Under the pieces are notes generated by a model that was given only the letters and a program-made list of their open reading frames with translations, ran no database searches and was not told where the DNA came from. From a virus (Duplodnaviria > Caudoviricetes): a stretch of 64,000 bases of DNA. Shown in pieces: positions 10,065 to 49,477 of the stretch (position 1 is its first letter; the number at the start of each line of letters is the position of its first letter). The position numbers were made by a program, and so were the translations under genes. The stretch is taken from positions 24,097 to 88,096 of the IMG/VR virus record IMGVR_UViG_640069307_000003, one strand, 5' to 3'.

Positions 10065-11174
10065 ATGTGGTTCAAGAACCTCACGCTGTTCAAACTGACC
10101 GACTTCGCCATAGATGCACAGACGCTTTCCGACAAGCTCGCGAAAGCCGCATTCTCGCCCTGCACGGACCTTCAGGAAAAGTCAGTCGGCTTTGTCACGC
10201 CGCGCCCCGATAGCCCGCACGTCTATGCGGTCAACGGCGAATTCCTGATCGCACTGCGCACGCAAAAGCGCAACCTGCCCGGCTCGGTCGTGAAAGAGGA
10301 AGTGGCGCGCCGCGCGGCGGAGTATGAGAAGGAATACGGACACAAGCCCGGCCGCAAGATGCTGAAGGAACTCAAAGAGCAGTCCATCGACGCGCTCTTG
10401 CCGCAGGCGTTCAAGACAAGCCGCACCACGCACGCATGGATTTCGCCCAAGGCGGGCCTGCTCGTGATCGACACGGCATCTACGGCCATCGCCGACGATT
10501 TCATTGGCGCGCTGCTGCGCGCGATTGAAGTGCCCGTCAAGCTGCATCCGCTCGCAACCAATACCGCGCCGAGCGCGGCCATGTCGAAATGGCTGCTCGA
10601 CGAACCGCCCTCGTTTCTCACCATCGACAGCGACGCCGTTTTCGTGACGACGCACGGCGGCAACATTAAGTATTCGAATACGCCCGTCGAGGGCGACGAC
10701 GCCAAGCGCCAGCTTGAGGCAGGCCAGCGCGTGTCGAGCCTCGCGCTGACGTGGGATGACAAGGTTTCGTTCGTGCTCGCAGGCAAGGGAACCATCAAGC
10801 GCGTGAAGGCGCTCGACGTGCTCAAGGGCGAGGCCGCCGACAAGGCCGACGAGGATTCGTTCGCGTCTGATTTCCTGCTGATGGCGGGCACGCTCGCGCA
10901 GATGGTCGGCGAACTGGTCGAATCGCTTGGCGGCGAGCGCGAGCCGGAACACGATATCGCCGACGCAGCCGATGACAGCGACGATGAACTGTACGGCAAG
11001 GCCCGGCAGATCGTGATCGAGAACGAGCGCGCGTCTATCTCACTCGTGCAACGCCATTTGCGCATCGGCTATAACCGCGCCGCGCGACTGCTCGATTCGC
11101 TCGAATCGCATGGGGTCGTCAGCGCGATGGATTCGAGCGGCAATCGCCGCGTGCTCGCAACGGAGGCAGCATGA
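10065..11174 (+). CDS. rdgC: Recombination-associated protein RdgC with C-terminal FtsK-gamma domain
   Basis: MWFKNLTLF..LLPQAF..LALTWDDKVSFVL RdgC; tail DELY..ARQIVIE..ASISLVQRHLRIGYNRAARLLD is FtsK-gamma wHTH. Confidence 0.9.
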   Translation: MWFKNLTLFKLTDFAIDAQTLSDKLAKAAFSPCTDLQEKSVGFVTPRPDSPHVYAVNGEFLIALRTQKRNLPGSVVKEEVARRAAEYEKEYGHKPGRKMLKELKEQSIDALLPQAFKTSRTTHAWISPKAGLLVIDTASTAIADDFIGALLRAIEVPVKLHPLATNTAPSAAMSKWLLDEPPSFLTIDSDAVFVTTHGGNIKYSNTPVEGDDAKRQLEAGQRVSSLALTWDDKVSFVLAGKGTIKRVKALDVLKGEAADKADEDSFASDFLLMAGTLAQMVGELVESLGGEREPEHDIADAADDSDDELYGKARQIVIENERASISLVQRHLRIGYNRAARLLDSLESHGVVSAMDSSGNRRVLATEAA

Positions 11175-12064
11175 AACTGCGCGAAACCAATCTCGTCAGC
11201 CTGAAGAAGATCGCCGAGGACAAGTCTCAGGACGCCATCGGCATCAAAAAGGTCACGCACTACATGCTGGACCCGCGCGCGATCCGCATTGAACCGGGCT
11301 TCAACGCGCGCGACATGGTCAACATGAGCGAGCGCACTCGCGCGCACATCGACCAAATGAAGGTCGCGATTCGTGCGGGTACGGTCATGCCCGCAATGAA
11401 GGTACGCGTGTCCGGCGACACCATCTATGTCGTCGAGGGCCACTGCCGCCTGACCGCGTACATGGAACTGATCGCCGAGGGCCTTGAAATCCTGCTCGTT
11501 CCGGTCGAGCAGTTCAACGGCAACGACGAGGACCGCGATTTTGAAGTCCTGAATAGCGCGAGCCAGTTGCACCTGACGCGCCTCGAACAGGGCCGCATCT
11601 ACAAGCGCCGCGTCGCGTTCGGTTGGTCGGTCGCGCAGATCGCCGCACGCGCGTTCAAGTCGGCGAGTTTCGTCGAGCAAAACCTGATGCTCGCGAACGC
11701 CGATTCGGACGTGCAACGCCTGCTCGAAGCCGACAAGGTATCGGTCAAGGTCGCACTGGACGCCATCCGCAAGCACGGCGACAAGGCTGGCGCGAAGCTC
11801 GCCGCCCGCATCGAGTCAGAAGGCGGCGCGAAGCTGACCGGCGCGAGCCTCACGCGCGCGCTGCCGTCCAAGGTCGTGCGCAATGTCACGGCCGCCGTAA
11901 GCGACCTTTTCGGCGACACACAGAGCATGTGGGCCGCGCGCATCCGCGAGTGCTCCGATAGTGGCGCAGTTCAGATGATGGTGCCGGTATCAGTCATGCG
12001 CGCGCTGCTCGACGCGCACGAGGCCGCCACGCACGCCAGCGCGCCTGCAAAGGAGGCCGCGTGA
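11171..12064 (+). CDS. ParB N-terminal-like domain phage protein
   Basis: IEPGFNAR...VVEGHCRL ParB/Srx box followed by an HTH-like GWSVAQIAARAFKS. Confidence 0.7.
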   Translation: MKLRETNLVSLKKIAEDKSQDAIGIKKVTHYMLDPRAIRIEPGFNARDMVNMSERTRAHIDQMKVAIRAGTVMPAMKVRVSGDTIYVVEGHCRLTAYMELIAEGLEILLVPVEQFNGNDEDRDFEVLNSASQLHLTRLEQGRIYKRRVAFGWSVAQIAARAFKSASFVEQNLMLANADSDVQRLLEADKVSVKVALDAIRKHGDKAGAKLAARIESEGGAKLTGASLTRALPSKVVRNVTAAVSDLFGDTQSMWAARIRECSDSGAVQMMVPVSVMRALLDAHEAATHASAPAKEAA

Positions 12065-12462
12065 GCACGGAACGCGTCAACACGGGCGAATATTTCACGA
12101 TAGAGCAGGCAAGCGCGCATGCCGCCGAGTTTTGCCGCAAGCACCCGGCATGGATTCGTGTGTGCGACATGCCCGACACGGAAGAAGTGAATCGCGCGCT
12201 CTACGTCCATTGGGACGAGTTGAGCAAGCGTGCTCAGGACTACTGGGGCAGCGAGTATGCCTATAACGAATTCGCGACGAAGCGCTGCAAGGTCAAGCAG
12301 GGCGTGATGACCGGCAAGGGCGAGCTGTACGACAGCATTATCCAAGCGCCCTTGTTCCACAACGTCATGTGCATGTACCGGGTCGGCGTAAGCCGGGCGC
12401 GGGAATGGTCCGCGCAGCGCGCGAAAGAACGTGAGGAGGAGCGTGCGAAATGGAGCAAGTGA
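12061..12462 (+). CDS. Hypothetical phage protein (133 aa)
   Basis: GTG start coupled to the upstream stop, GGAGG RBS. Confidence 0.65.
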   Translation: MSTERVNTGEYFTIEQASAHAAEFCRKHPAWIRVCDMPDTEEVNRALYVHWDELSKRAQDYWGSEYAYNEFATKRCKVKQGVMTGKGELYDSIIQAPLFHNVMCMYRVGVSRAREWSAQRAKEREEERAKWSK

Positions 12463-12890
12463 CCCTGCCGCCACCCATCGTGCCGGTCGAGGACCGTAGC
12501 GCATGGCAATGCCCGTCGCACGGCGCGGGTACGCCGCTACGCCTGTTCGGCTCGACCCTGCATTGCGTGCTATGCGGCGAGCAGTGCGAGCCGCGCCCGT
12601 CCGTCATCGCCGCGCAGCGCCACGCAGCGCGCGTGGTGCCCACCGTCGGCACGGTTCGCGGCGCACCACCCGCCCGCAACGGCTGCTATGACCGGCCCGC
12701 CAGCGCCCCGCCCTACTTTGCTCAGGACGGGTACGAGGAGGCGGTAGATCAGGGGTGGGGCACTTTCCACCGCACGACCCGTTACATCGAGGTCGAGCAC
12801 GTCATGAGCGAGGATTGCCAATACAGCGAGCACACTGTCGACCCGAAGTGTGCGGGCTGCCGATGGAACAAACAGGAGGCCAGCAAGTGA
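12450..12890 (+). CDS. Hypothetical Cys-rich phage protein
   Basis: CPSH, CVLC, DCQYS and CAGC motifs; operon position. Confidence 0.6.
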   Translation: MEQVTLPPPIVPVEDRSAWQCPSHGAGTPLRLFGSTLHCVLCGEQCEPRPSVIAAQRHAARVVPTVGTVRGAPPARNGCYDRPASAPPYFAQDGYEEAVDQGWGTFHRTTRYIEVEHVMSEDCQYSEHTVDPKCAGCRWNKQEASK

Positions 12891-13111
12891 TACGCGTTAT
12901 CAGCGAACTGCCTACGTGGGCGCTCGCATGGGCACTCGCCTTCGCCTTTCTCGCCATGCAGGCGCACATGCGCGACGTTGAGAACCGACCACACCAGTCT
13001 GGCAACAGAATGCCCTGTGACGACCGCGCCGATCTGCACTCGACCGGGTCAAATCAATACCGTACACGCCTGACCTATTGCAGCCGAACCCACCCGAGCC
13101 TAGCCGCGTAA
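12887..13111 (+). CDS. Possible small membrane protein whose 3' half runs into the pentamer array
   Basis: GTG start with AGGAGG RBS; hydrophobic WALAWALAFAFL segment. Confidence 0.35.
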   Translation: MIRVISELPTWALAWALAFAFLAMQAHMRDVENRPHQSGNRMPCDDRADLHSTGSNQYRTRLTYCSRTHPSLAA

Positions 13112-13800
13112 AACCACCACATACCCGACCTTACCTATACAAACCGCGTAACACCTATACGATCCTGTATTGACCTAAACTGTTCTGTACAGGTTTGCCA
13201 CCCCCCCCATCGAACTGACGCCCTTACACCCAACGCAAAGACGCTCATTTCGACCCGAATCCGTGTGTTTGGACAGATTTCGACCGATTCAAGCCAGAAT
13301 TGGTCAGAAGCCCTTCCCTCACACGGATTTTTCATTTGTTCGAGCCAGAATCGAACGCACGAAACCCGAACAAACAAAGCCTGAATTGACAAAACCGCTA
13401 GTGTTTCGACTGATTTTAGTCAATTTTGACGGAAACAAGCCTTTACACGCTCGGTTTTTACAAAATAGGTCCAGTTTTGTCTGTTTCGTACACTCCTCAC
13501 CCGGCCAGAATCGACCACACCCAACCAAACCCACCCAAACCAAACCTATATTGGTTAGGTGTGTACTGTACAGGTGTATATAGGTGTGTTTTGACTTGGT
13601 TCGGTCGAGTGTCGTTCATTTTCTTCTGGTTTGACCTGATCTGGTCTGACTCAAAGTGTTTCGTATTGAACACATCGAACCGAGTTGATCTTAGTCCGGC
13701 CAGTACAGGCCACATCTGACGTTGTGTGAAATGGTCCGTTCAAGTATAAGGATACTGATACAATTCGCACCGCATCAGACTCGAACGATAAGGACCGGAC
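12980..13800. repeat. Degenerate 5-bp periodic array (candidate parS centromere)
   Basis: Phased pentamers such as ccgac cttac ctata caaac / ccaac caaac ccacc caaac caaac ctata / ttggt taggt ctgta caggt ttgac ttggt tcggt; polarity flips near 13550; lower GC than flanks. Confidence 0.8.
13722..13750 (+). promoter_or_regulatory. parA promoter embedded in the array
   Basis: TTGTGT-17-TATAAG, 53 bp upstream of the parA ATG. Confidence 0.6.
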
Positions 13801-13803
13801 CGA

Positions 13804-14481
13804 ATGCCTATCTACCTGTTCGCCCATACCAAGGGCGGCGTCACCAAGACGACGACTGCCATCAACATGGCCGCCATGCGCGCGGCCGACGGCCGCCGCG
13901 TGCTCCTCGTGGACAGCGATTCGGGCCAGTCCGCAACCGGCTTCGTCAATACGCGCAAGCTCAAGGGCTTGCCCGACATTCCGCATGTCTCGCTTGTCTC
14001 GTATCTGACCGATGACGAAGGCTGGTATCGCATCGACGGCGACATTCTGAAGCTCGCGAAGTCGGGCAGGTATGACGACATTCTGATCGACGCGGGCGGG
14101 GAAGGGCACGGCTCACCCGAGATTCGCGCTGCGCTCACCGTCGCTGACAAGGTCGTGACGCCGTGCGGAACGTCGAGCGTGGACACGGTGCGCCTCGCTC
14201 CGATGAACAGCATGATCGGCGAAGCGCGCACGCTCAATCCGAAGCTGAAGGCGTTTCTATTCGCCTCGCGCGCGAGCACGAATGCGCGCTCGTCTGACGT
14301 AATCGAGTTCTACAAGGACGTGGCGAAGTTCCGCAACTACACGGTCATGGAGTCCGTCATCCGCGCCCGCGACTGCTACACGAAGTGGGAAAAAACCGGC
14401 GAGGCCGTTTTCGAGCAGAAGCGCGGCATCAAGGCCGCCATGCAGGAAATGGCCGACCTGTACAAAGAGGTGTTCGCATGA
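13804..14481 (+). CDS. parA: ParA family Walker-type partition ATPase (type Ib size)
   Basis: Deviant Walker [26 protein letters not shown]; no N-terminal HTH. Confidence 0.88.
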
Positions 14482-14975
14482 CCGACAAGCCATTGAGCGC
14501 CGCCGAGGCGAAACGCGCGCGAGAATTGGAAGCCCGACGGGCCATGTTCACGCAGGGCGATGCGCGCCCGGCAAATACCGACCTTTCGACCATTCTCGGA
14601 CCGGAGGAGGGCGCGCAGAAGGGCATGACGACCGAGGAGCCGCCCGCCGATACGGCCGCGCCGGAACCAGCCGCGCAGGAGGCCGCAGAAGCGTCCGCCA
14701 TGCCCGCGGACACCCCGAACCCCATGCCGACGGCAGAAAAGCCCGCCAAGGCCCCAAAAACCGCCTCACCGGGGAACCGGAAAGCGGAACGTAAGCCGTG
14801 GGATGAATACCTGCCGACAGAGGCAAAGGGTTTTACGACCAAATTCGACCCGGAGCTACACGCGAAACTGGTCTGGATTACCGAAAACGTGCCGAAAATG
14901 TCGATTCAGAAGATCGTCAAGGCGGCCGTTGCCGAGTTCGCCGACAAAACCATCGCGGAGCGATACAAGCCATGA
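14478..14975 (+). CDS. Putative centromere-binding protein 1 (disordered N-terminus + RHH)
   Basis: Start MTDKPL at 14478 (ATGA overlap); C-terminal [31 protein letters not shown] ribbon-helix-helix pattern. Confidence 0.65.
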
Positions 14976-15316
14976 ACGTGCGATACGAACTGAAGAAGGG
15001 CGTTCGTCTGAGCGCCGAGGACGTGACCATCGTGCCGGTGGAGCAGCCGCGTGCCGACGCGCCCACACGCGATGCACGACAGGTGCCGCTCGACCTGAAG
15101 CCGCGGCCCGAGCGCGAGCGCCGACCGTGGGAGGACGCAAACCCGCGCGTCAAAACGTCGATCCGCCTCGAAATGGACGAAGTGCTGAAGCTCAAGCTCG
15201 ACTGGATCAAAGAGCACTTCCCGAACAGCGCCATCAGCGCGGTTTGCCGCCGTGCCGTCGAGAAAGAGGCCGCGCGCCTAATCGCCGAATGGGATGCAAC
15301 GCATCCGAGCGCCTAA
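14972..15316 (+). CDS. Putative centromere-binding protein 2 (RHH)
   Basis: RPWE..KTSIRLEMDEVLKLKLDWI..AISAVCRRAV, paralogous to the upstream C-terminus. Confidence 0.65.
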   Translation: MNVRYELKKGVRLSAEDVTIVPVEQPRADAPTRDARQVPLDLKPRPERERRPWEDANPRVKTSIRLEMDEVLKLKLDWIKEHFPNSAISAVCRRAVEKEAARLIAEWDATHPSA

Positions 15317-15317
15317 G

Positions 15318-15331
15318 ATAGGAATGTCTAT
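15318..15331. promoter_or_regulatory. Near-consensus operator ATAGG-AATG-TCTAT
   Basis: One mismatch to ATAGA-N4-TCTAT, immediately after the par operon stop. Confidence 0.45.
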
Positions 15332-15336
15332 CGCCA

Positions 15337-15373
15337 AACCCGACGAGCCTCGCGCCGTCGGGTTTTTTGTTTT
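15337..15373 (+). terminator. Intrinsic terminator of the par operon
   Basis: AACCCGACG-loop-CGTCGGGTT plus T-run. Confidence 0.75.
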
Positions 15374-15409
15374 TTGGGGGTGTCTCTTCTAAAAAGCAAC
15401 AACATCCGG

Positions 15410-15810
15410 TTGTTGACCTTTAGAAAAACAACACCTTTAAAAACCTTTAGGAGCGCGAGATCCTTGCCTGACAAGGGATTGCCGGGAGATACAGCATACT
15501 TTTCGGGACCAAAGAGCATAGTTTAGGGGACGGTTCGCCGACCAAAGAGCATAGTCTGCGGGATAGAGCATAGTTCTCGGGATAGGCCATAGCCTCGACC
15601 AGAAAACGCACGTAACTACATGATTTAAAATGATATAGATGCTTCTATATGCCGCCCTCCGAGATGTCAAGAGCATAGTATTCGGGGCATAGAGCATAGT
15701 TTGCGGGACGAGCGCACCGCGGACGCGCCATAGAGCATAGTTTGCGGGATGGAGCGCCCACTAGCATAGAGCATAGTTTGCGGGATAACTTAAAGCATAG
15801 TTCTATCTTG
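15410..15810 (+). repeat. Plasmid origin: AT-rich ACCTTTA repeats plus iterons
   Basis: Iteron core AGAGCATAGT(TTGCGGGAT) at 15513, 15546, 15565, 15670, 15691, 15732, 15768, with degenerate copies at 15493, 15584, 15793; three ACCTTTA repeats at ~15417-15452. Confidence 0.85.
15633..15650. promoter_or_regulatory. Operator ATATAGA-TGCT-TCTATAT between iteron clusters
   Basis: Perfect 7-4-7 palindrome matching the immunity-region operators. Confidence 0.7.
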
Positions 15811-15836
15811 CGGATATGCTTTACACCATCTACACT
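15808..15836 (+). promoter_or_regulatory. rep promoter overlapping the last iteron
   Basis: TTGCGG-17-TACACT. Confidence 0.65.
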
Positions 15837-15862
15837 TCCCGGCATCGAAAGAGGGGATTGAG

Positions 15863-17071
15863 ATGGGAAAGGTTATCAAGAGCAAGGCGTCAGCCGTTGA
15901 CACTCGCTCGCCCGAACTGGCGAAGCTCGACGAGCGCGAGCTACGAAAGCATGTCGCGACAATCCATGTCAGCGGCAGTCTGTCGCTCGTTGAACGCAAA
16001 ATCGTCAACGTCCTTTTGCTGCACGCATACGACGATCTGCTCACAAAACGCGAGCACACAATGTCGGTGCGGTTCCTTTGCGAGGCCATCGGATGGGACA
16101 GCAGCAACGACCATAAGAAGCTCGCCGAAGCGGCCGAAAACATCATGCGGAACATCGTGACCGTCAACATGTTTTCCGACGGCAGCGAGGAATGGAAGAA
16201 AACCGCGCTCGTGTCGTCTGTTGGCGTGAAGAATGGTCGCGTGACCTACGCCTACATCGAATGGCTTGCAGAGCGCCTTGCGCGCCCGGAGGTATTCGCC
16301 GCCATTGATATCAAGATTCAACGCCGGTTCAAGAGCGGCTATGCGCTCGCGCTCTACGAGAACTGCATCCGGTTCAAGGGCGTCGGTCAAACCCGGTACG
16401 CGCCCGTCGATACGTGGAAGGAGATTCTTGGCGCGACGGGAAAAATGTACGAGGAGTATCGGCACTTTTCGAACCACGTTCTGAAAACCGCAATCAAGGA
16501 AATCAACGACGTAGCGGATATCGACGTAGACCTGCGCGTGAAGAAGGATGGCAGGCGGATCGTTGAGATTCAATTCGGCGTGAAAGAGAAGGCGCAGGCC
16601 GAACTCCCATTTGAAGGCGACCCGAAGGAGGAGCAGACGCGCGAGGAGTTGCAGCGCATCGGCATTGGCGCGAACACCATCAAGCGCATTCTCGCCAAGA
16701 ACCCATCGCGCGCATGGCTCGCAGCGAAGGTCACGCGCGAGCGCGAGACGGCCGGGAAAATCAAGGATTCGGCGGCAGGCTATTTCATGAGCATCTTCGA
16801 GAGCGATTCCGTTCTCGAACTGCCCGCCGAGCCACCCAAACCGGAGCAGAAAGAACCCGCACGACCATCTGCCGAGGAGCTAGAGAAAGACCGGAAAGCG
16901 GATGCCGCACGCAAGGCTACAGCGGCACTCACCGAGGAGAAGCGGGCCGAACTGCGCGCGGCCTACATCGCGAATAATCCGGACGCGGCATACAACGAGG
17001 AAACCGGGAGGTGGAACAAGGCGGCTCACACGACCGGGTATCGGGCGTTCGAGCGAGCGCAGAGCGTATAA
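15863..17071 (+). CDS. repA: Plasmid replication initiator (Rep3/RepB family)
   Basis: LSLVERKIVNVLL..., RFKSGYALALYE, YRHFSNHVLKTAIKEIN Rep3 motifs; adjacent iterons. Confidence 0.88.
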   Translation: MGKVIKSKASAVDTRSPELAKLDERELRKHVATIHVSGSLSLVERKIVNVLLLHAYDDLLTKREHTMSVRFLCEAIGWDSSNDHKKLAEAAENIMRNIVTVNMFSDGSEEWKKTALVSSVGVKNGRVTYAYIEWLAERLARPEVFAAIDIKIQRRFKSGYALALYENCIRFKGVGQTRYAPVDTWKEILGATGKMYEEYRHFSNHVLKTAIKEINDVADIDVDLRVKKDGRRIVEIQFGVKEKAQAELPFEGDPKEEQTREELQRIGIGANTIKRILAKNPSRAWLAAKVTRERETAGKIKDSAAGYFMSIFESDSVLELPAEPPKPEQKEPARPSAEELEKDRKADAARKATAALTEEKRAELRAAYIANNPDAAYNEETGRWNKAAHTTGYRAFERAQSV

Positions 17072-36745: not shown

Positions 36746-37028
36746 GCATCCGGCGATTTCTGACGCCGAGGAGGCTGCAATCCAGCGCGGCATCGCCGCC
36801 GACCCGGACGCGGCGGAAATCCCTGCCGAGAACATCAAGGCCATGCGCCCGTTCTCGGAACTTGTCGCAAAGAAGCGCATGGGACGGCCGCCGTCGGAGA
36901 ACCCGAAAGAGCAGGTCACGATGCGTTATGACTCGGACGTGCTCGCGGCCTTCCGCGCGACGGGCGCAGGCTGGCAGACGCGCATGAATGAGGCGCTTCG
37001 GACCTACCTGAAAGAGCACGCGCTATAA
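36720..37028 (+). CDS. brnA: BrnA family antitoxin
   Basis: GRPP..PKEQVTMRYDSDVLAAFRATGAGWQTRMNEALR. Confidence 0.92.
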   Translation: MNKVTHQRKHPAISDAEEAAIQRGIAADPDAAEIPAENIKAMRPFSELVAKKRMGRPPSENPKEQVTMRYDSDVLAAFRATGAGWQTRMNEALRTYLKEHAL

Positions 37029-46808: not shown

Positions 46809-49477
46809 GCTGCCAGCTTCGCCCTTGCCTTCGCGACTGCGAACGCGCTGTATGCGTTGACGGCCTGCTTGAACAGGGCTTGCATGTCGGCGTTCTCCGC
46901 GTTGTCCGCGTGAATCTGCATCAGGCGGGCCGGGATCGCCGCATCGGACAGGTCCGCGCTGCCGTCGATAATCGATTGCATGTAGACCGCATCCGGGTTC
47001 GTAGCGGGCGTTTCCGGCTCCGGCGTCGGCGCGACCGTCGGACTTAGGAACGCTGTAATTTCTTCAACAGCGGCATCGACCAGCTCGCCCGGCGTGGCAT
47101 AGGTGCCCACGTCCTCAACTGCGCCAGCTTCCGTAAGGCCGATGATTGCCTTGCGCAGCGCGTAGGTGCCGTCTGTCTGAATGTAGGCGCTCAGGGCGAG
47201 CCGCACGCCGTCAGCATTGCTTTCCGAACGCGTCCAGACGTTGTCAGCGCCGTGCCTGAACCCGTTCGCTTCGAGCACGTCTGCACCGGGGTAGGTCGGC
47301 TCGATTGGAGCGGAAGTGAACGCGTCAAATTCGGCTTGTGCGGCAGCGATGGCGGCCTCTGCCGTATCGAACTGGCCTAGGTCTTGACCTGCGCCGGTGA
47401 TGCCGGGCGCGCCGATGGACTTGCGCACGAAATACCCGCCCTCGGCGACGTTGATGTTCACGCGCACGAAACGACCGTCGTCAGCCGTCATGCTGCGCGC
47501 CCATACGTTCGAAGTGATGTTCTTGAAACCGGCCGCTTCGAGTGCGGGTTCGCCCTGCGGTTTCGGCGCGGCGGGGGTGCCCGGTGTGTCGAGTGCGTCG
47601 AGTTCTGCGAGTACGTCGTCAATGCCTTGGTCGGGGGCAACGGCAGGCTCGACCGTATAGCCCGCCTCACGCAATTGTTGAATCGTGCTTTCGACCTGCG
47701 CATGCAATACCTTGCCGGTGCCGTCGGTATGCTCCGCCATCTGATTCCACGCCGTCTCGCCTGCGGGCGTTTCCGGGTAGAACATGGTGAACATATCATC
47801 GACCTTGCGATAGGTGAGGTCGGGCTTGCTGCTGGCGGCTGGCGCGTAGTTCTCGCGCCAGCGCGTCAGCGACGCCTCGATATCGTCGGGATGGCTCGCC
47901 ATGATGTGGTCGATCAGGCGCGCGCGCTTGTCACCCGTCGCATCCTTGCCCGTTACGAGGTCGTCAAATCCACCGATGGACAGCGGCGCGGTCGCGGCCA
48001 TCATCGCCAGTTCGGAATCGCTCAGGGCTTCGATTTGGGGGCGCAGCGCGGCGGCGCGCGCTTCGAGTTCGGCGCTTTCCTGTTCAGTCACAACCGGGTT
48101 TGCGGCGGGCGCTTCCTGCGCGACGACGGCCGGGGCTTCCGGTTCGGCGGGCGCTTCCGGGTCGATGGCGGGTGCAACAGGCGTTTCCGGATCGATGACC
48201 GGCTTCGGCTGAGTCTCGACGACTGCCGCAGGCTCGACGGGCTCAACCGGCGCAGCGGCAGGCTCGGGGGCTGCGGTGGGCTTCGCTGCAACGATGGCCT
48301 CAAGCTGCTGAATCTCGGTCGTCAGCGTTTCGAGCGTCGCTTCCTTTTCCGCGAACTCCTTTTGCAGGCCGTCAATGGACGCCATGCGCTCGGCGCGCTT
48401 GGCATTCGTCGAGGCAAATCGCGAACTGTTCTTTGCGGCGAGACTCATCACGCGCAGCGCGACATTGCGCACGTTCAGGTCACGGCCGCGCTCCGGCGCA
48501 ACGGCAATCGTCACGTCCTTTTTGTTGAGCATCCATTTCCACGAAATGAGGTCGTCGCCCGGCATGATCTTTTTGGGCGTCACGTCAGGATTGTGGAAAA
48601 AGATCGAGAGCGTCTGACCGTCGGACAGTTCGAACACGGCGGCAACGTTGGTCGTGCCCTTTTGCGAGAACGGCTCGGTAATCTGAAACGACGCTACGCT
48701 CAGACCTTCAACGGCACGGTCCATCACCTTTTTCAGGATTGCCATGCGCGGTTCGAGGCGCGCATACGGCACCACGAGCGCATCGAGCGCGAGCACGCCG
48801 TCCGAGTCCGCGAGAATGTCGGCGGCCGTCAGCGGATCGAACATGAGGCTGTCGCGCCCGTCGTGCGCGCGGATGCGGTAGAGCAGTTGCGCGAGCGTCG
48901 TGCCGACCGGCGCATTCGCGCTGTCCCAAATTACCTTTTGCATATCGTTGCGTTCCTCGTAGGGGAGTTGATCCGGCGTAAGCGGCTTCGACATATCGCC
49001 GTATGTCATCCACCATTTGAGTTGGGCGAGCGAGCAGGGCACGCAGCTATTCATGCCCTGCCAGCCGCTATCGAAGTTGCTGAGATACCCGGCTTCCGCG
49101 GTGCGTTGATCGGGAAAGCCGAGCATGACCTTGTGCTCGTCGAAAGCGCCGCGCAGGAATTGATTCACGACAAACGCCGTGTTGGATTCCGGGGCCGGGC
49201 CGAGATACACGTCGAGTTCATCACCGTCCGCGCCCTTGACGCCTTGGAAATAGCCGTAATGGAACCGCATCAGGTTCGCGCCGCTCGTGCCGTCGGCGGC
49301 GCGCCACTGGCGCAGCGTGCCGCGCGGGTTCTCAATGACGACCGGGAAGCCGCGCACGCTCGTGCGGCCTTTCTTGTAGTTCCCGGCGTCCTGCATGGCG
49401 GGCGATGGATGCGCGAGCGCGTTATGCCCGTATGCGCCCTCGTGGGCGGCCTGTTCGATAGTGAGATAGGAGGTCAT
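46805..49477 (-). CDS. darA: DarA-like polyvalent protein with N-terminal inorganic-pyrophosphatase-like domain
   Basis: GNYKKG..IENPRG..YGYF..GADGD.LDV..FDEHKVMLGF (InPase type); LSDGQTLSIFFH..W.LNKKDVT..VAPERGRD (DarA_N); C-terminal DarA_C-like helix bundle. Confidence 0.8.
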   Translation of the reverse strand: MTSYLTIEQAAHEGAYGHNALAHPSPAMQDAGNYKKGRTSVRGFPVVIENPRGTLRQWRAADGTSGANLMRFHYGYFQGVKGADGDELDVYLGPAPESNTAFVVNQFLRGAFDEHKVMLGFPDQRTAEAGYLSNFDSGWQGMNSCVPCSLAQLKWWMTYGDMSKPLTPDQLPYEERNDMQKVIWDSANAPVGTTLAQLLYRIRAHDGRDSLMFDPLTAADILADSDGVLALDALVVPYARLEPRMAILKKVMDRAVEGLSVASFQITEPFSQKGTTNVAAVFELSDGQTLSIFFHNPDVTPKKIMPGDDLISWKWMLNKKDVTIAVAPERGRDLNVRNVALRVMSLAAKNSSRFASTNAKRAERMASIDGLQKEFAEKEATLETLTTEIQQLEAIVAAKPTAAPEPAAAPVEPVEPAAVVETQPKPVIDPETPVAPAIDPEAPAEPEAPAVVAQEAPAANPVVTEQESAELEARAAALRPQIEALSDSELAMMAATAPLSIGGFDDLVTGKDATGDKRARLIDHIMASHPDDIEASLTRWRENYAPAASSKPDLTYRKVDDMFTMFYPETPAGETAWNQMAEHTDGTGKVLHAQVESTIQQLREAGYTVEPAVAPDQGIDDVLAELDALDTPGTPAAPKPQGEPALEAAGFKNITSNVWARSMTADDGRFVRVNINVAEGGYFVRKSIGAPGITGAGQDLGQFDTAEAAIAAAQAEFDAFTSAPIEPTYPGADVLEANGFRHGADNVWTRSESNADGVRLALSAYIQTDGTYALRKAIIGLTEAGAVEDVGTYATPGELVDAAVEEITAFLSPTVAPTPEPETPATNPDAVYMQSIIDGSADLSDAAIPARLMQIHADNAENADMQALFKQAVNAYSAFAVAKARAKLAA

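Follow-up and report, generated by a model that had tools for sequence, protein, structure and literature searches.

A 5-bp purine/pyrimidine lattice upstream of parA in plasmid pBVIE05 is a probable expanded centromere and operator for ribbon-helix-helix partition proteins

The window analyzed here comprises 64,000 nucleotides of pBVIE05, an 88,096-bp circular plasmid of Burkholderia vietnamiensis G4 (CP000621; window position 12900 is record position 36996). Directly upstream of its partition gene parA lies a lattice of about 165 degenerate 5-bp units. This lattice is probably the cis-acting centromere and operator of the parA-B1-B2 operon, an expanded version of the 60- to 100-bp pentamer arrays that precede parA in a wider family of loci. 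This reading is favored because of the position of the lattice, the conservation of its rhythm without its sequence, the ribbon-helix-helix (RHH) partner proteins encoded downstream, and the pentamer operators found across the family. From this anatomy and comparative association, we infer that RHH proteins bind the lattice, and in what mode. Coordinates below are those of the window.

12976-13803 (~830 bp), unstranded: pentamer lattice of ~165 degenerate H-Y-N-R-D (~YYNRR) units with a 5.00-bp period
13022-13308, unstranded: left coherent part of the lattice, in one register and C/A-rich on the + strand
13330-13803, unstranded: right coherent part, 474 bp (~95 units) free of slips, shifted +1 relative to the left part and running through the promoter to the parA start
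13129-13195, + strand: left box cluster, with NACCTATA at 13132 and 13152 and the 15-mer CTGTTCTGTACAGGT at 13180-13194
13541-13590, unstranded: right box cluster, a composite palindrome with ACCTATA (13544, + strand) and GTGTACTGTACAGGT (13561-13575)
13722-13750, + strand: parA promoter inside the lattice, with -35 TTGTGT (13722-13727), a 17-nt spacer, and -10 TATAAG (13745-13750)
13804-14481, + strand: parA, encoding a small Walker-type partition ATPase of 225 aa without an N-terminal DNA-binding domain
14478-14975, + strand: B1, encoding a candidate centromere-binding protein with an N-terminal basic patch, the motif xF..G.A, and a predicted C-terminal RHH domain
14972-15316, + strand: B2, encoding a predicted RHH paralogue confined to this clade and lacking the family N-terminal motif

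The original prediction, made from the letters of this DNA, described in-phase 5-bp units over some 800 bp and expected a sharp period-5 peak relative to a shuffled control. Such a peak was found. Over 12980-13800, the four-base Fourier power at period 5.00 was 15.1, compared with 0.74 in dinucleotide-preserving shuffles (z = 31.7), and none of 200 shuffles reached the power of the lattice. No further period among 2 to 20 stood out against the shuffles; the 7-, 8-, and 9-bp periods gave z values of -1.1, -0.67, and 0.04, respectively. When 100-bp windows were slid along the 64 kb, power above 3 was confined to 12976-13825 and one marginal window at 47251. A scan of the whole 88-kb replicon in a two-letter purine/pyrimidine (R/Y) alphabet found period-5 power above 9 at the lattice only. 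As predicted, the lattice starts inside the open reading frame (ORF) at 12887-13111, covers the promoter, and ends at the parA start (13804). Purines and pyrimidines account for almost all of the signal, with normalized power of 54.9 for R/Y, 3.6 for A+C versus G+T, and 3.5 for A+T versus G+C. In the right coherent part, power was 59.9 at period 5.00 and 0.0 at period 5.25, and helical phasing at the half-turn of 5.25 bp was dropped on this ground. A 10-bp super-unit was likewise dropped, there being no 10-bp signal.

Phase tracking resolved three coherent runs, namely 13022-13197, 13217-13308, and 13330-13803. The right part is displaced from the left by a net +1 in register, and the register of the left part is briefly broken at a C8 run (13201-13208). 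A unit matrix was built from the 146 in-phase pentamers in these runs. It has A, C, or T at position 0 (G in 1%), C or T at position 1 (A in 5%), any base at position 2, G or A at position 3 (T in 5%), and A, G, or T at position 4 (C in 3%). The matrix correlates with its own reverse complement (r = 0.86) and carries 1.46 bits of information, and H-Y-N-R-D fits 65% of the units, compared with 14% expected from composition. The lattice unit is a very degenerate, dyad-symmetric H-Y-N-R-D (~YYNRR); a central Y-R step is present in 86% of units, and 60% of junctions have an R-Y step. The Y-x-R-x-Y pattern given at the outset only approximates this symmetric unit. The original view that the units are too degenerate for a slippage microsatellite agrees with these data: Tandem Repeats Finder made a single 5-bp repeat call (13514-13546; 33 bp, 6.6 copies, 75% matches), and the commonest in-phase pentamer occurs 4 times. 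A pentanucleotide microsatellite, which would consist of head-to-tail copies of high identity, was rejected on these grounds.

The lattice had been proposed as a substitute for discrete binding boxes. Two specific box clusters lie within it, and the arrangement is better described as boxes plus lattice. In the left cluster, which is among the few parts of the lattice still aligning with relatives, the 15-mer CTGTTCTGTACAGGT contains the palindrome CTGTACAG. This palindrome has two copies in the 64 kb, both in the lattice, and 5 of the 24 window matches to NACCTATA with at most 1 mismatch fall there. The right cluster reads ACCTATA, GTGTACTGTACAGGT, and then TATAGGTG on the opposite strand, with - strand boxes (CACCTGTA / CACCTATA) at 13569 and 13579, and sits within a 43-nt inverted repeat (arms 13509-13551 and 13578-13620). 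The clusters lie ~380 to 410 bp apart (381 bp from box to box), and the lattice runs 240 bp past the right cluster to the start codon.

A central polarity flip near 13550, separating two loosely inverted arms, had also been described. The switch itself is real, the (A+C)-(G+T) skew changing from +0.72 to -0.52 at 13546. The arms are not, because the G/T-rich side extends for ~100 bp, after which the skew is neutral. Relatives show several patchy alternating blocks and not two arms, and a global two-arm inversion was dropped. The flip is a local palindrome and coincides with the right box cluster at 13541-13590. Separately, AATTGACAAAA and TTTAGTCAATT, the arms of an 11-nt inverted repeat separated by 20 nt, are found in mid-lattice between the clusters, at 13384-13425.

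The parA promoter call rests on its sequence, on conservation of the -10 region in relatives, and on the start of an RNA contig; a consensus promoter/terminator scan returned no site in 12800-13900 and left this promoter unscored. In each of four RNA-seq runs from one study, parA, B1, and B2 were joined in a single RNA contig at a depth of 29 to 43. Two runs gave contigs of 13770-15345 and 13770-15354, and in the remaining two the contig begins at 13789 or 13803, consistent with a promoter lying inside the lattice. Further RNA contigs begin near 12742-12752, upstream of the small ORF at 12887-13111. In three of the four runs, a contig of ~235 to 255 nt (depth 8 to 17) lies in 13201-13457, beginning with the C8 run. 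This contig may represent either the 3′ portion of the small-ORF transcript or a separate RNA. The genes at 12000-12400 had no RNA cover. These contigs give neither strand nor transcript ends, and uncovered parts of the lattice are not evidence of silence. An Rfam scan of 12500-16000 found nothing above threshold.

ParA matched Pfam AAA_31, CbiA, and MipZ as well as phrog_164 ("ParA-like partition protein," E = 4e-41), and it scored 104 bits against NCBIfam ParA_partition, below the equivalog cutoff of 180. Like the ParA proteins of type Ib systems (~200 to 230 aa), it is a small Walker-type ATPase without an N-terminal helix-turn-helix. The type Ib arrangement is seen also in the DNA, where a repeat array lies upstream of the operon and overlaps its promoter. 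Assignment to type Ia ParABS, in which a ParB/Srx-type gene follows parA, was rejected: the genes in that place appear to encode RHH proteins, and a ParB-like gene stands in a separate upstream block.

RHH proteins had been named as the likely partners. Neither B1 nor B2 matched a curated family above threshold in Pfam, NCBIfam, or PHROGs. The hints from these collections were of RHH type and all subthreshold (Arc, 0.079; RHH_1, 0.021; Antitox_RHH, 0.055; HicB, 0.12), and ESM Atlas gave leads to DUF5388, CB_ParB_C, HicB, and RHH_1 on minorities of clusters. B1 consists of a basic patch, a Pro/Ala/Glu-rich linker, and a C-terminal PW-strand-helix-helix domain; the C termini of B1 and B2 are paralogous and align over this same domain. 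At ~40 metagenomic loci with ParA proteins 33 to 41% identical, the gene after parA encodes the same domain, composed of the PW motif, a short strand (consensus YNLRL), and two helices. A profile of 35 such domains was compared with solved structures. The best match was the Mnt repressor (E = 0.026), with the strand and both helices in register, and a CopG-family regulator matched at E = 0.59; profiles of full-length B1 and B2 had no meaningful match in the PDB.

Structure prediction pointed to the same fold. AlphaFold modeled the C-terminal 65 aa of B2 (35-sequence alignment) as an extended segment and two helices with a predicted local distance difference test score (pLDDT) of 93; a full-length B2 model (5-sequence alignment) reached a pLDDT of 64 and gave no informative fold matches. 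Of the 50 matches listed in a structure search with the domain model, nearly all were RHH proteins, including CopA_SO (Z 6.0; root mean square deviation of 1.1 Å over 48 residues), omega (Z 5.2 to 5.3), ParG (Z 4.1), pCXC100 ParB (Z 4.0), Arc (Z 4.0), TacA, ParD, PutA, TraM, NikR, and SegB. Such modest Z values are to be expected of a domain of 50 residues, and it is the uniformity of the matches that constitutes the evidence. A Foldseek search against the PDB gave nothing at an E of ≤0.001. Together, the Mnt profile match, the AlphaFold model, and the fold matches predict that the C termini of B1 and B2 are RHH domains, in line with the original prediction.

The family defined by this domain (PW-RHH) comprises 876 clusters at an E of ≤0.001 among 1.84 billion representatives of 50%-identity clusters. 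It is without a Pfam or NCBIfam model and occurs on six PLSDB plasmids, always as a "hypothetical protein." Its N-terminal signature, a basic patch followed by xF..G.A (consensus LKSRPP...DLDAFIxGA), is kept in B1 and absent from B2. Because of this distribution, B1 appears to be the orthologue of the single partner protein of the family, and B2 appears to be a clade-specific addition. In the best-scoring family member, P0059 (227 aa), two matched stretches correspond to two RHH modules in one chain.

Five related loci (L077, L078, L079, L080, and L190; ParA 47 to 77% identical) make up with pBVIE05 a close clade of six members, all but two of them from metagenomes. The parA-B1-B2 operon and the Rep gene are kept in all five. 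At each of them, R/Y period-5 power is far above background directly upstream of parA, with a best period of 4.99 to 5.01; no such signal was found elsewhere within the 7.5 to 12.7 kb examined per locus. The parA genes share 64 to 75% nucleotide identity, and blastn similarity to the window is confined to the 5′ part of the small ORF, the two box clusters, and the promoter. The search for similar arrays upstream of homologous parA genes, put forward together with the idea that the period itself is selected, thus returned an array at five of five loci. Since the rhythm is conserved while the DNA sequence of the lattice is not, the rhythm itself appears to be under selection.

In L079, L080, and L190, the CTGTACAG/ACCTATA boxes are replaced by three copies of a 16- to 20-bp palindrome with the core GATACCAGTTGGTATC. 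A left-hand pair is followed, 341 to 379 bp to the right, by the third copy, 140 to 150 bp before parA. Box-to-box spacing is 341 to 379 bp in L078, L079, L080, and L190, and the comparison indicates that a two-cluster layout is kept while the box sequence changes. The predicted beta-strand of B2 covaries with the boxes, TSIRLEM (TSIRFEM in L077) accompanying CTGTACAG/ACCTATA and PFNLRP accompanying GATACCAGTTGGTATC. The B1 strand varies without following box type.

A broader set of 170 ParA loci was scanned for the same signal, with distant ParA proteins (≤40% identity) from genome and metagenome contig scans serving as controls. R/Y period-5 power exceeded 9 upstream of parA at 10 loci and downstream at none, and the same scan at periods 4, 6, 7, 8, and 9 gave 3, 1, 0, 4, and 0 loci, respectively. 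ParA of pBVIE05 has few close homologues; plasmid and phage collections held no close relative except its own record (≤39% identity among the matches listed).

In the wider family, the 60 to 100 bp before parA contain clean in-phase pentamers that run into the ribosome-binding site. Typically, several GATAT/GGTAT/GAAAT units are followed by CATAC/CATAT, in inverse orientation and with the register displaced by one base. No other pentamer comes close in frequency to GATAT and its rotations, and the same pattern is present on plasmids of cultured Methylobacter and Nitrosococcus. In the 90 bp before parA, the median four-base power of the family (n = 34) was 1.35 at period 5, compared with 0.37 to 0.52 at periods 4 and 6 to 11 and 0.51 in coding DNA (Wilcoxon P = 1.5e-4). 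No period-5 excess before parA was seen at the remaining 131 ParA loci (P = 0.76). At these loci without a PW-RHH partner (L002 to L187), the same 90 bp rose above the power threshold in 10% of cases at period 4 and in 5% at period 8, which hints at ParG-like arrays of 4+4-bp boxes in part of the set, many of the loci being actinobacterial. The idea that a strong R/Y lattice characterizes the whole family was rejected, as most PW-RHH members have short sequence-specific arrays only; judged from these loci, the long degenerate lattice is a feature of the pBVIE05 clade. A G+C-rich metagenomic locus, L181 (ParA 33% identical), has a ~500-bp pentamer lattice of its own (250-745), with YAGAC units, nine sharing a single register, followed by GTCTR units in inverse orientation and an R/Y power of 38 to 39 in 150-bp windows. 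The protein encoded after its parA has a weak RHH_1-type match (E = 0.021, below the Pfam cutoff). L181 is apparently a second, independent candidate for an expanded pentamer centromere.

The kind of element proposed here, a type Ib repeat array that serves an RHH protein as centromere and operator, is already known. Centromeres of this type are found upstream of the operon, where they also act as operators, and consist of short degenerate direct and inverted repeats that are coated cooperatively by RHH dimers (PMC3130281, PMC3074162, PMC5016525). The closest likeness is to TP228 parH/OF with ParF and ParG, where degenerate direct and inverted boxes lie upstream of, and overlap, the promoter of a small-ParA/RHH operon, the centromere adjoins the operator, RHH dimers coat it cooperatively, and the flexible N-terminal tail of ParG acts on the ATPase (PMC3130281). 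The TP228 site differs in having 20 ACTC tetramers with 4-bp A+T-rich spacers, an 8-bp period over ~160 bp (PMC3130281). The lattice has no spacers, ~165 units over ~830 bp, an R/Y code, and two RHH paralogues. It shows no 8-bp signal (z = -0.67) and was not assigned to the ACTC type, and ParG was absent from the Pfam (E up to 0.1) and NCBIfam (E up to 1) matches of B1 and B2, the resemblance being at the fold level only.

The heptads of pSM19035 omega are also unspaced short repeats in mixed orientation (PMC3074150, PMC9499535; structures 1IRQ and 2BNW), and they are bound by one RHH dimer per heptad, 7 bp being the tightest characterized packing (PMC3074150, PMC9499535). They number 7 to 10 (~50 to 70 bp) and have a well-defined sequence, whereas the lattice is twelvefold longer and holds far less information per unit; 7-bp repeats (WATCACW) were rejected, with no 7-bp signal (z = -1.1). 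Like B1 and B2, pCXC100 ParB is a type Ib protein whose RHH fold was unpredictable from sequence. Its repeats are contiguous and cooperatively bound, and its centromere was first recognized as a weak periodicity only (PMC3074162). Unlike the lattice, it has nine 9-bp units in direct repeat only (PMC3074162), and no 9-bp signal was present here (z = 0.04), which rejects that type. The family strand YNLRL matches FNLRW/FNFRM of P22 Arc/Mnt; those repressors use a single operator with two dimers 11 bp apart and have no array, ParA partner, or PW motif. In the literature, no description was found of a 5-bp unit, of a length of ~165 units (9 to 20 in the systems studied), of an R/Y-only code, of the boxes-in-lattice layout, of a second RHH paralogue, or of the PW-RHH family, and literature on pBVIE05 and on GATAT repeats described no such site.

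Upstream of the lattice, genes for an ERF recombinase and an exonuclease are followed by an RdgC-FtsK-gamma fusion, a ParB-like gene, and two small ORFs; ~700 bp between the small ORFs and parA are annotated as noncoding. Downstream of it come parA, B1, B2, iterons, and a Rep3-type initiator gene.

10065-11174: RdgC fused to an FtsK-gamma domain, directly before the ParB-like gene
11171-12064: ParB-like gene (phrog_1033, E = 1e-60; weak Pfam HTH_ParB/KorB matches), ~1 kb upstream of the lattice
12887-13111, + strand: small ORF, unannotated in CP000621, encoding 74 aa with one hydrophobic helix
15546-15786: iteron-like repeats, of 19-bp units and 36- to 41-bp units containing GCATAGAGCATAG
15863-17071: Rep3-type initiator gene

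The iterons, lying between B2 and the initiator gene, are presumably the plasmid origin. The small ORF and the stop codon of the gene before it (12450-12890) overlap. L077 to L080 share the conserved N-terminal half of the ORF, and its 3′ half, where the lattice starts, is poorly conserved. The ParB-like gene is found in L077 and L079 and is absent from the syntenic position in L078. The G+C content of the lattice region is 43 to 50%, compared with ~62% in the flanks. The replicon looks like a phage-plasmid, because the close relatives found are all IMG/VR viral contigs (≤94 kb) and a GH19 lysin gene lies downstream.

If the lattice is the centromere and operator, RHH dimers would first bind the specific box clusters at 13129-13195 and 13541-13590 and then spread cooperatively along the low-specificity YYNRR lattice. 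A dyad-symmetric unit with a flexible central Y-R step would suit a two-fold-symmetric beta-ribbon inserted in the major groove. Because all units are alike, with an integer period and no 10-bp signal, each pentamer is seemingly read base by base rather than placed by helical phase. Successive dimers would then lie ~171° apart, on near-opposite faces, and dimers i and i+2 would adjoin on one face, as in Arc or ParR. The spacing in Arc and ParR is 10 to 11 bp. The resulting coat could hold up to ~165 dimers. B1 would present the family N-terminal tail to ParA and stimulate its ATPase, and the coat nearest the promoter would act as a repressor of the operon. With such a hard-wired lattice, a large, low-copy phage-plasmid could assemble a big partition complex and dispense with the CTP-driven spreading of a helix-turn-helix ParB. 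The original proposal of a long centromere/operator for RHH proteins is in part supported by the type Ib position, the promoter overlap, and the arrays of the wider family; its exclusion of boxes is not. A stricter version, in which one dimer per 5.00 bp on alternating faces builds a continuous two-row sheath of ~165 dimers over 830 bp, with B1 supplying the ParA-contacting tails, B2 serving as nucleator or second row, and the PW-RHH family as a pentamer-reading class, is a reading that we consider unlikely.

Several observations weigh against the centromere/operator reading. A repeat of 5 bp is shorter than any characterized for an RHH protein (omega, 7 bp; ParG, 8 bp; pCXC100 ParB, 9 bp), and one dimer per 5 bp would be new; this is the weakest link of the proposed mode. 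With ~1.5 bits per unit, specific recognition of the lattice would be weak. The covariation of boxes and B2 strand rests on two subclades only, low-depth RNA contigs (3 to 16) cover part of the lattice (13012-13457), and since most family members have short arrays only, we can but infer the reason for the expansion.

In a rival reading, only the box clusters bind protein and the lattice is a structural spacer, straight, isotropically flexible, or easily twisted, whose mechanical property would let clusters ~380 to 410 bp apart communicate or loop, or would keep other proteins off. The roughly conserved box spacing (381 bp in the window and 341 to 379 bp in four relatives) speaks for such a spacer. 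So do the retention of sequence similarity by the boxes and not by the lattice (1.46 bits per unit) and the Y-R centers (86%) and R-Y junctions (60%), which give alternating steps every 2.5 bp. The pentamers of the wider family, however, are sequence specific (GATAT and kin), occupy the entire operator, and do without flanking boxes; the lattice period is locked to the integer 5.00 and not to the half-turn of 5.25, which argues for base-by-base reading; and the lattice continues for 240 bp past the right cluster until it meets the start codon. We consider the spacer unlikely, although it is the most serious competitor.

Binding of the lattice by some other protein, be it ParA, the ParB-like protein encoded at 11171-12064, or a host nucleoid-associated protein, is less probable again. 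The ParB-like gene is only 1 kb upstream and the region is G+C poor, like the targets of silencing proteins, but the gene is missing at the syntenic position in L078, whose lattice is among the strongest, and distant pentamer-array loci share only parA and the RHH gene. No nucleoid protein or ParA is known to have a 5-bp site rhythm. Least probable is that the sequence acts as RNA, as a 3′ untranslated region (UTR) of the small ORF or a noncoding RNA, or is a functionless, decaying pentanucleotide microsatellite. RNA contigs over 13012-13457 (depth 3 to 16), with none at 12000-12400, speak for an RNA-level role; yet there is no Rfam match, the R/Y dyad symmetry is that expected of duplex DNA, and the promoter and 5′ UTR carry the signal as well. 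In a microsatellite undergoing decay, insertions and deletions would destroy the register, whereas 474 bp are slip-free here and the rhythm is kept without the sequence in six diverged loci.

For helix-turn-helix ParB proteins, loading at parS followed by spreading yields large partition complexes. It is much less clear how type Ib systems, with their small RHH partners, collect sufficient protein on a replicon that is large and low in copy number. The pBVIE05 locus suggests one answer, which is to lengthen the binding array to ~165 sites and relax it to a bare purine/pyrimidine code. No RHH protein has so far been associated with a repeat shorter than the 5 bp of the family operators, which raise the question of one dimer per half turn. 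The locus also defines a sizeable uncharacterized protein family, and an exact 5-bp R/Y periodicity before parA offers a sequence-independent signature for finding such centromeres in phage-plasmids and plasmids. If the two-row sheath were true, it would be a filament architecture not seen for any RHH protein and a DNA-encoded substitute for CTP-driven ParB spreading or condensation, and the 876 clusters of the PW-RHH family would form a distinct, pentamer-reading class of partition systems.

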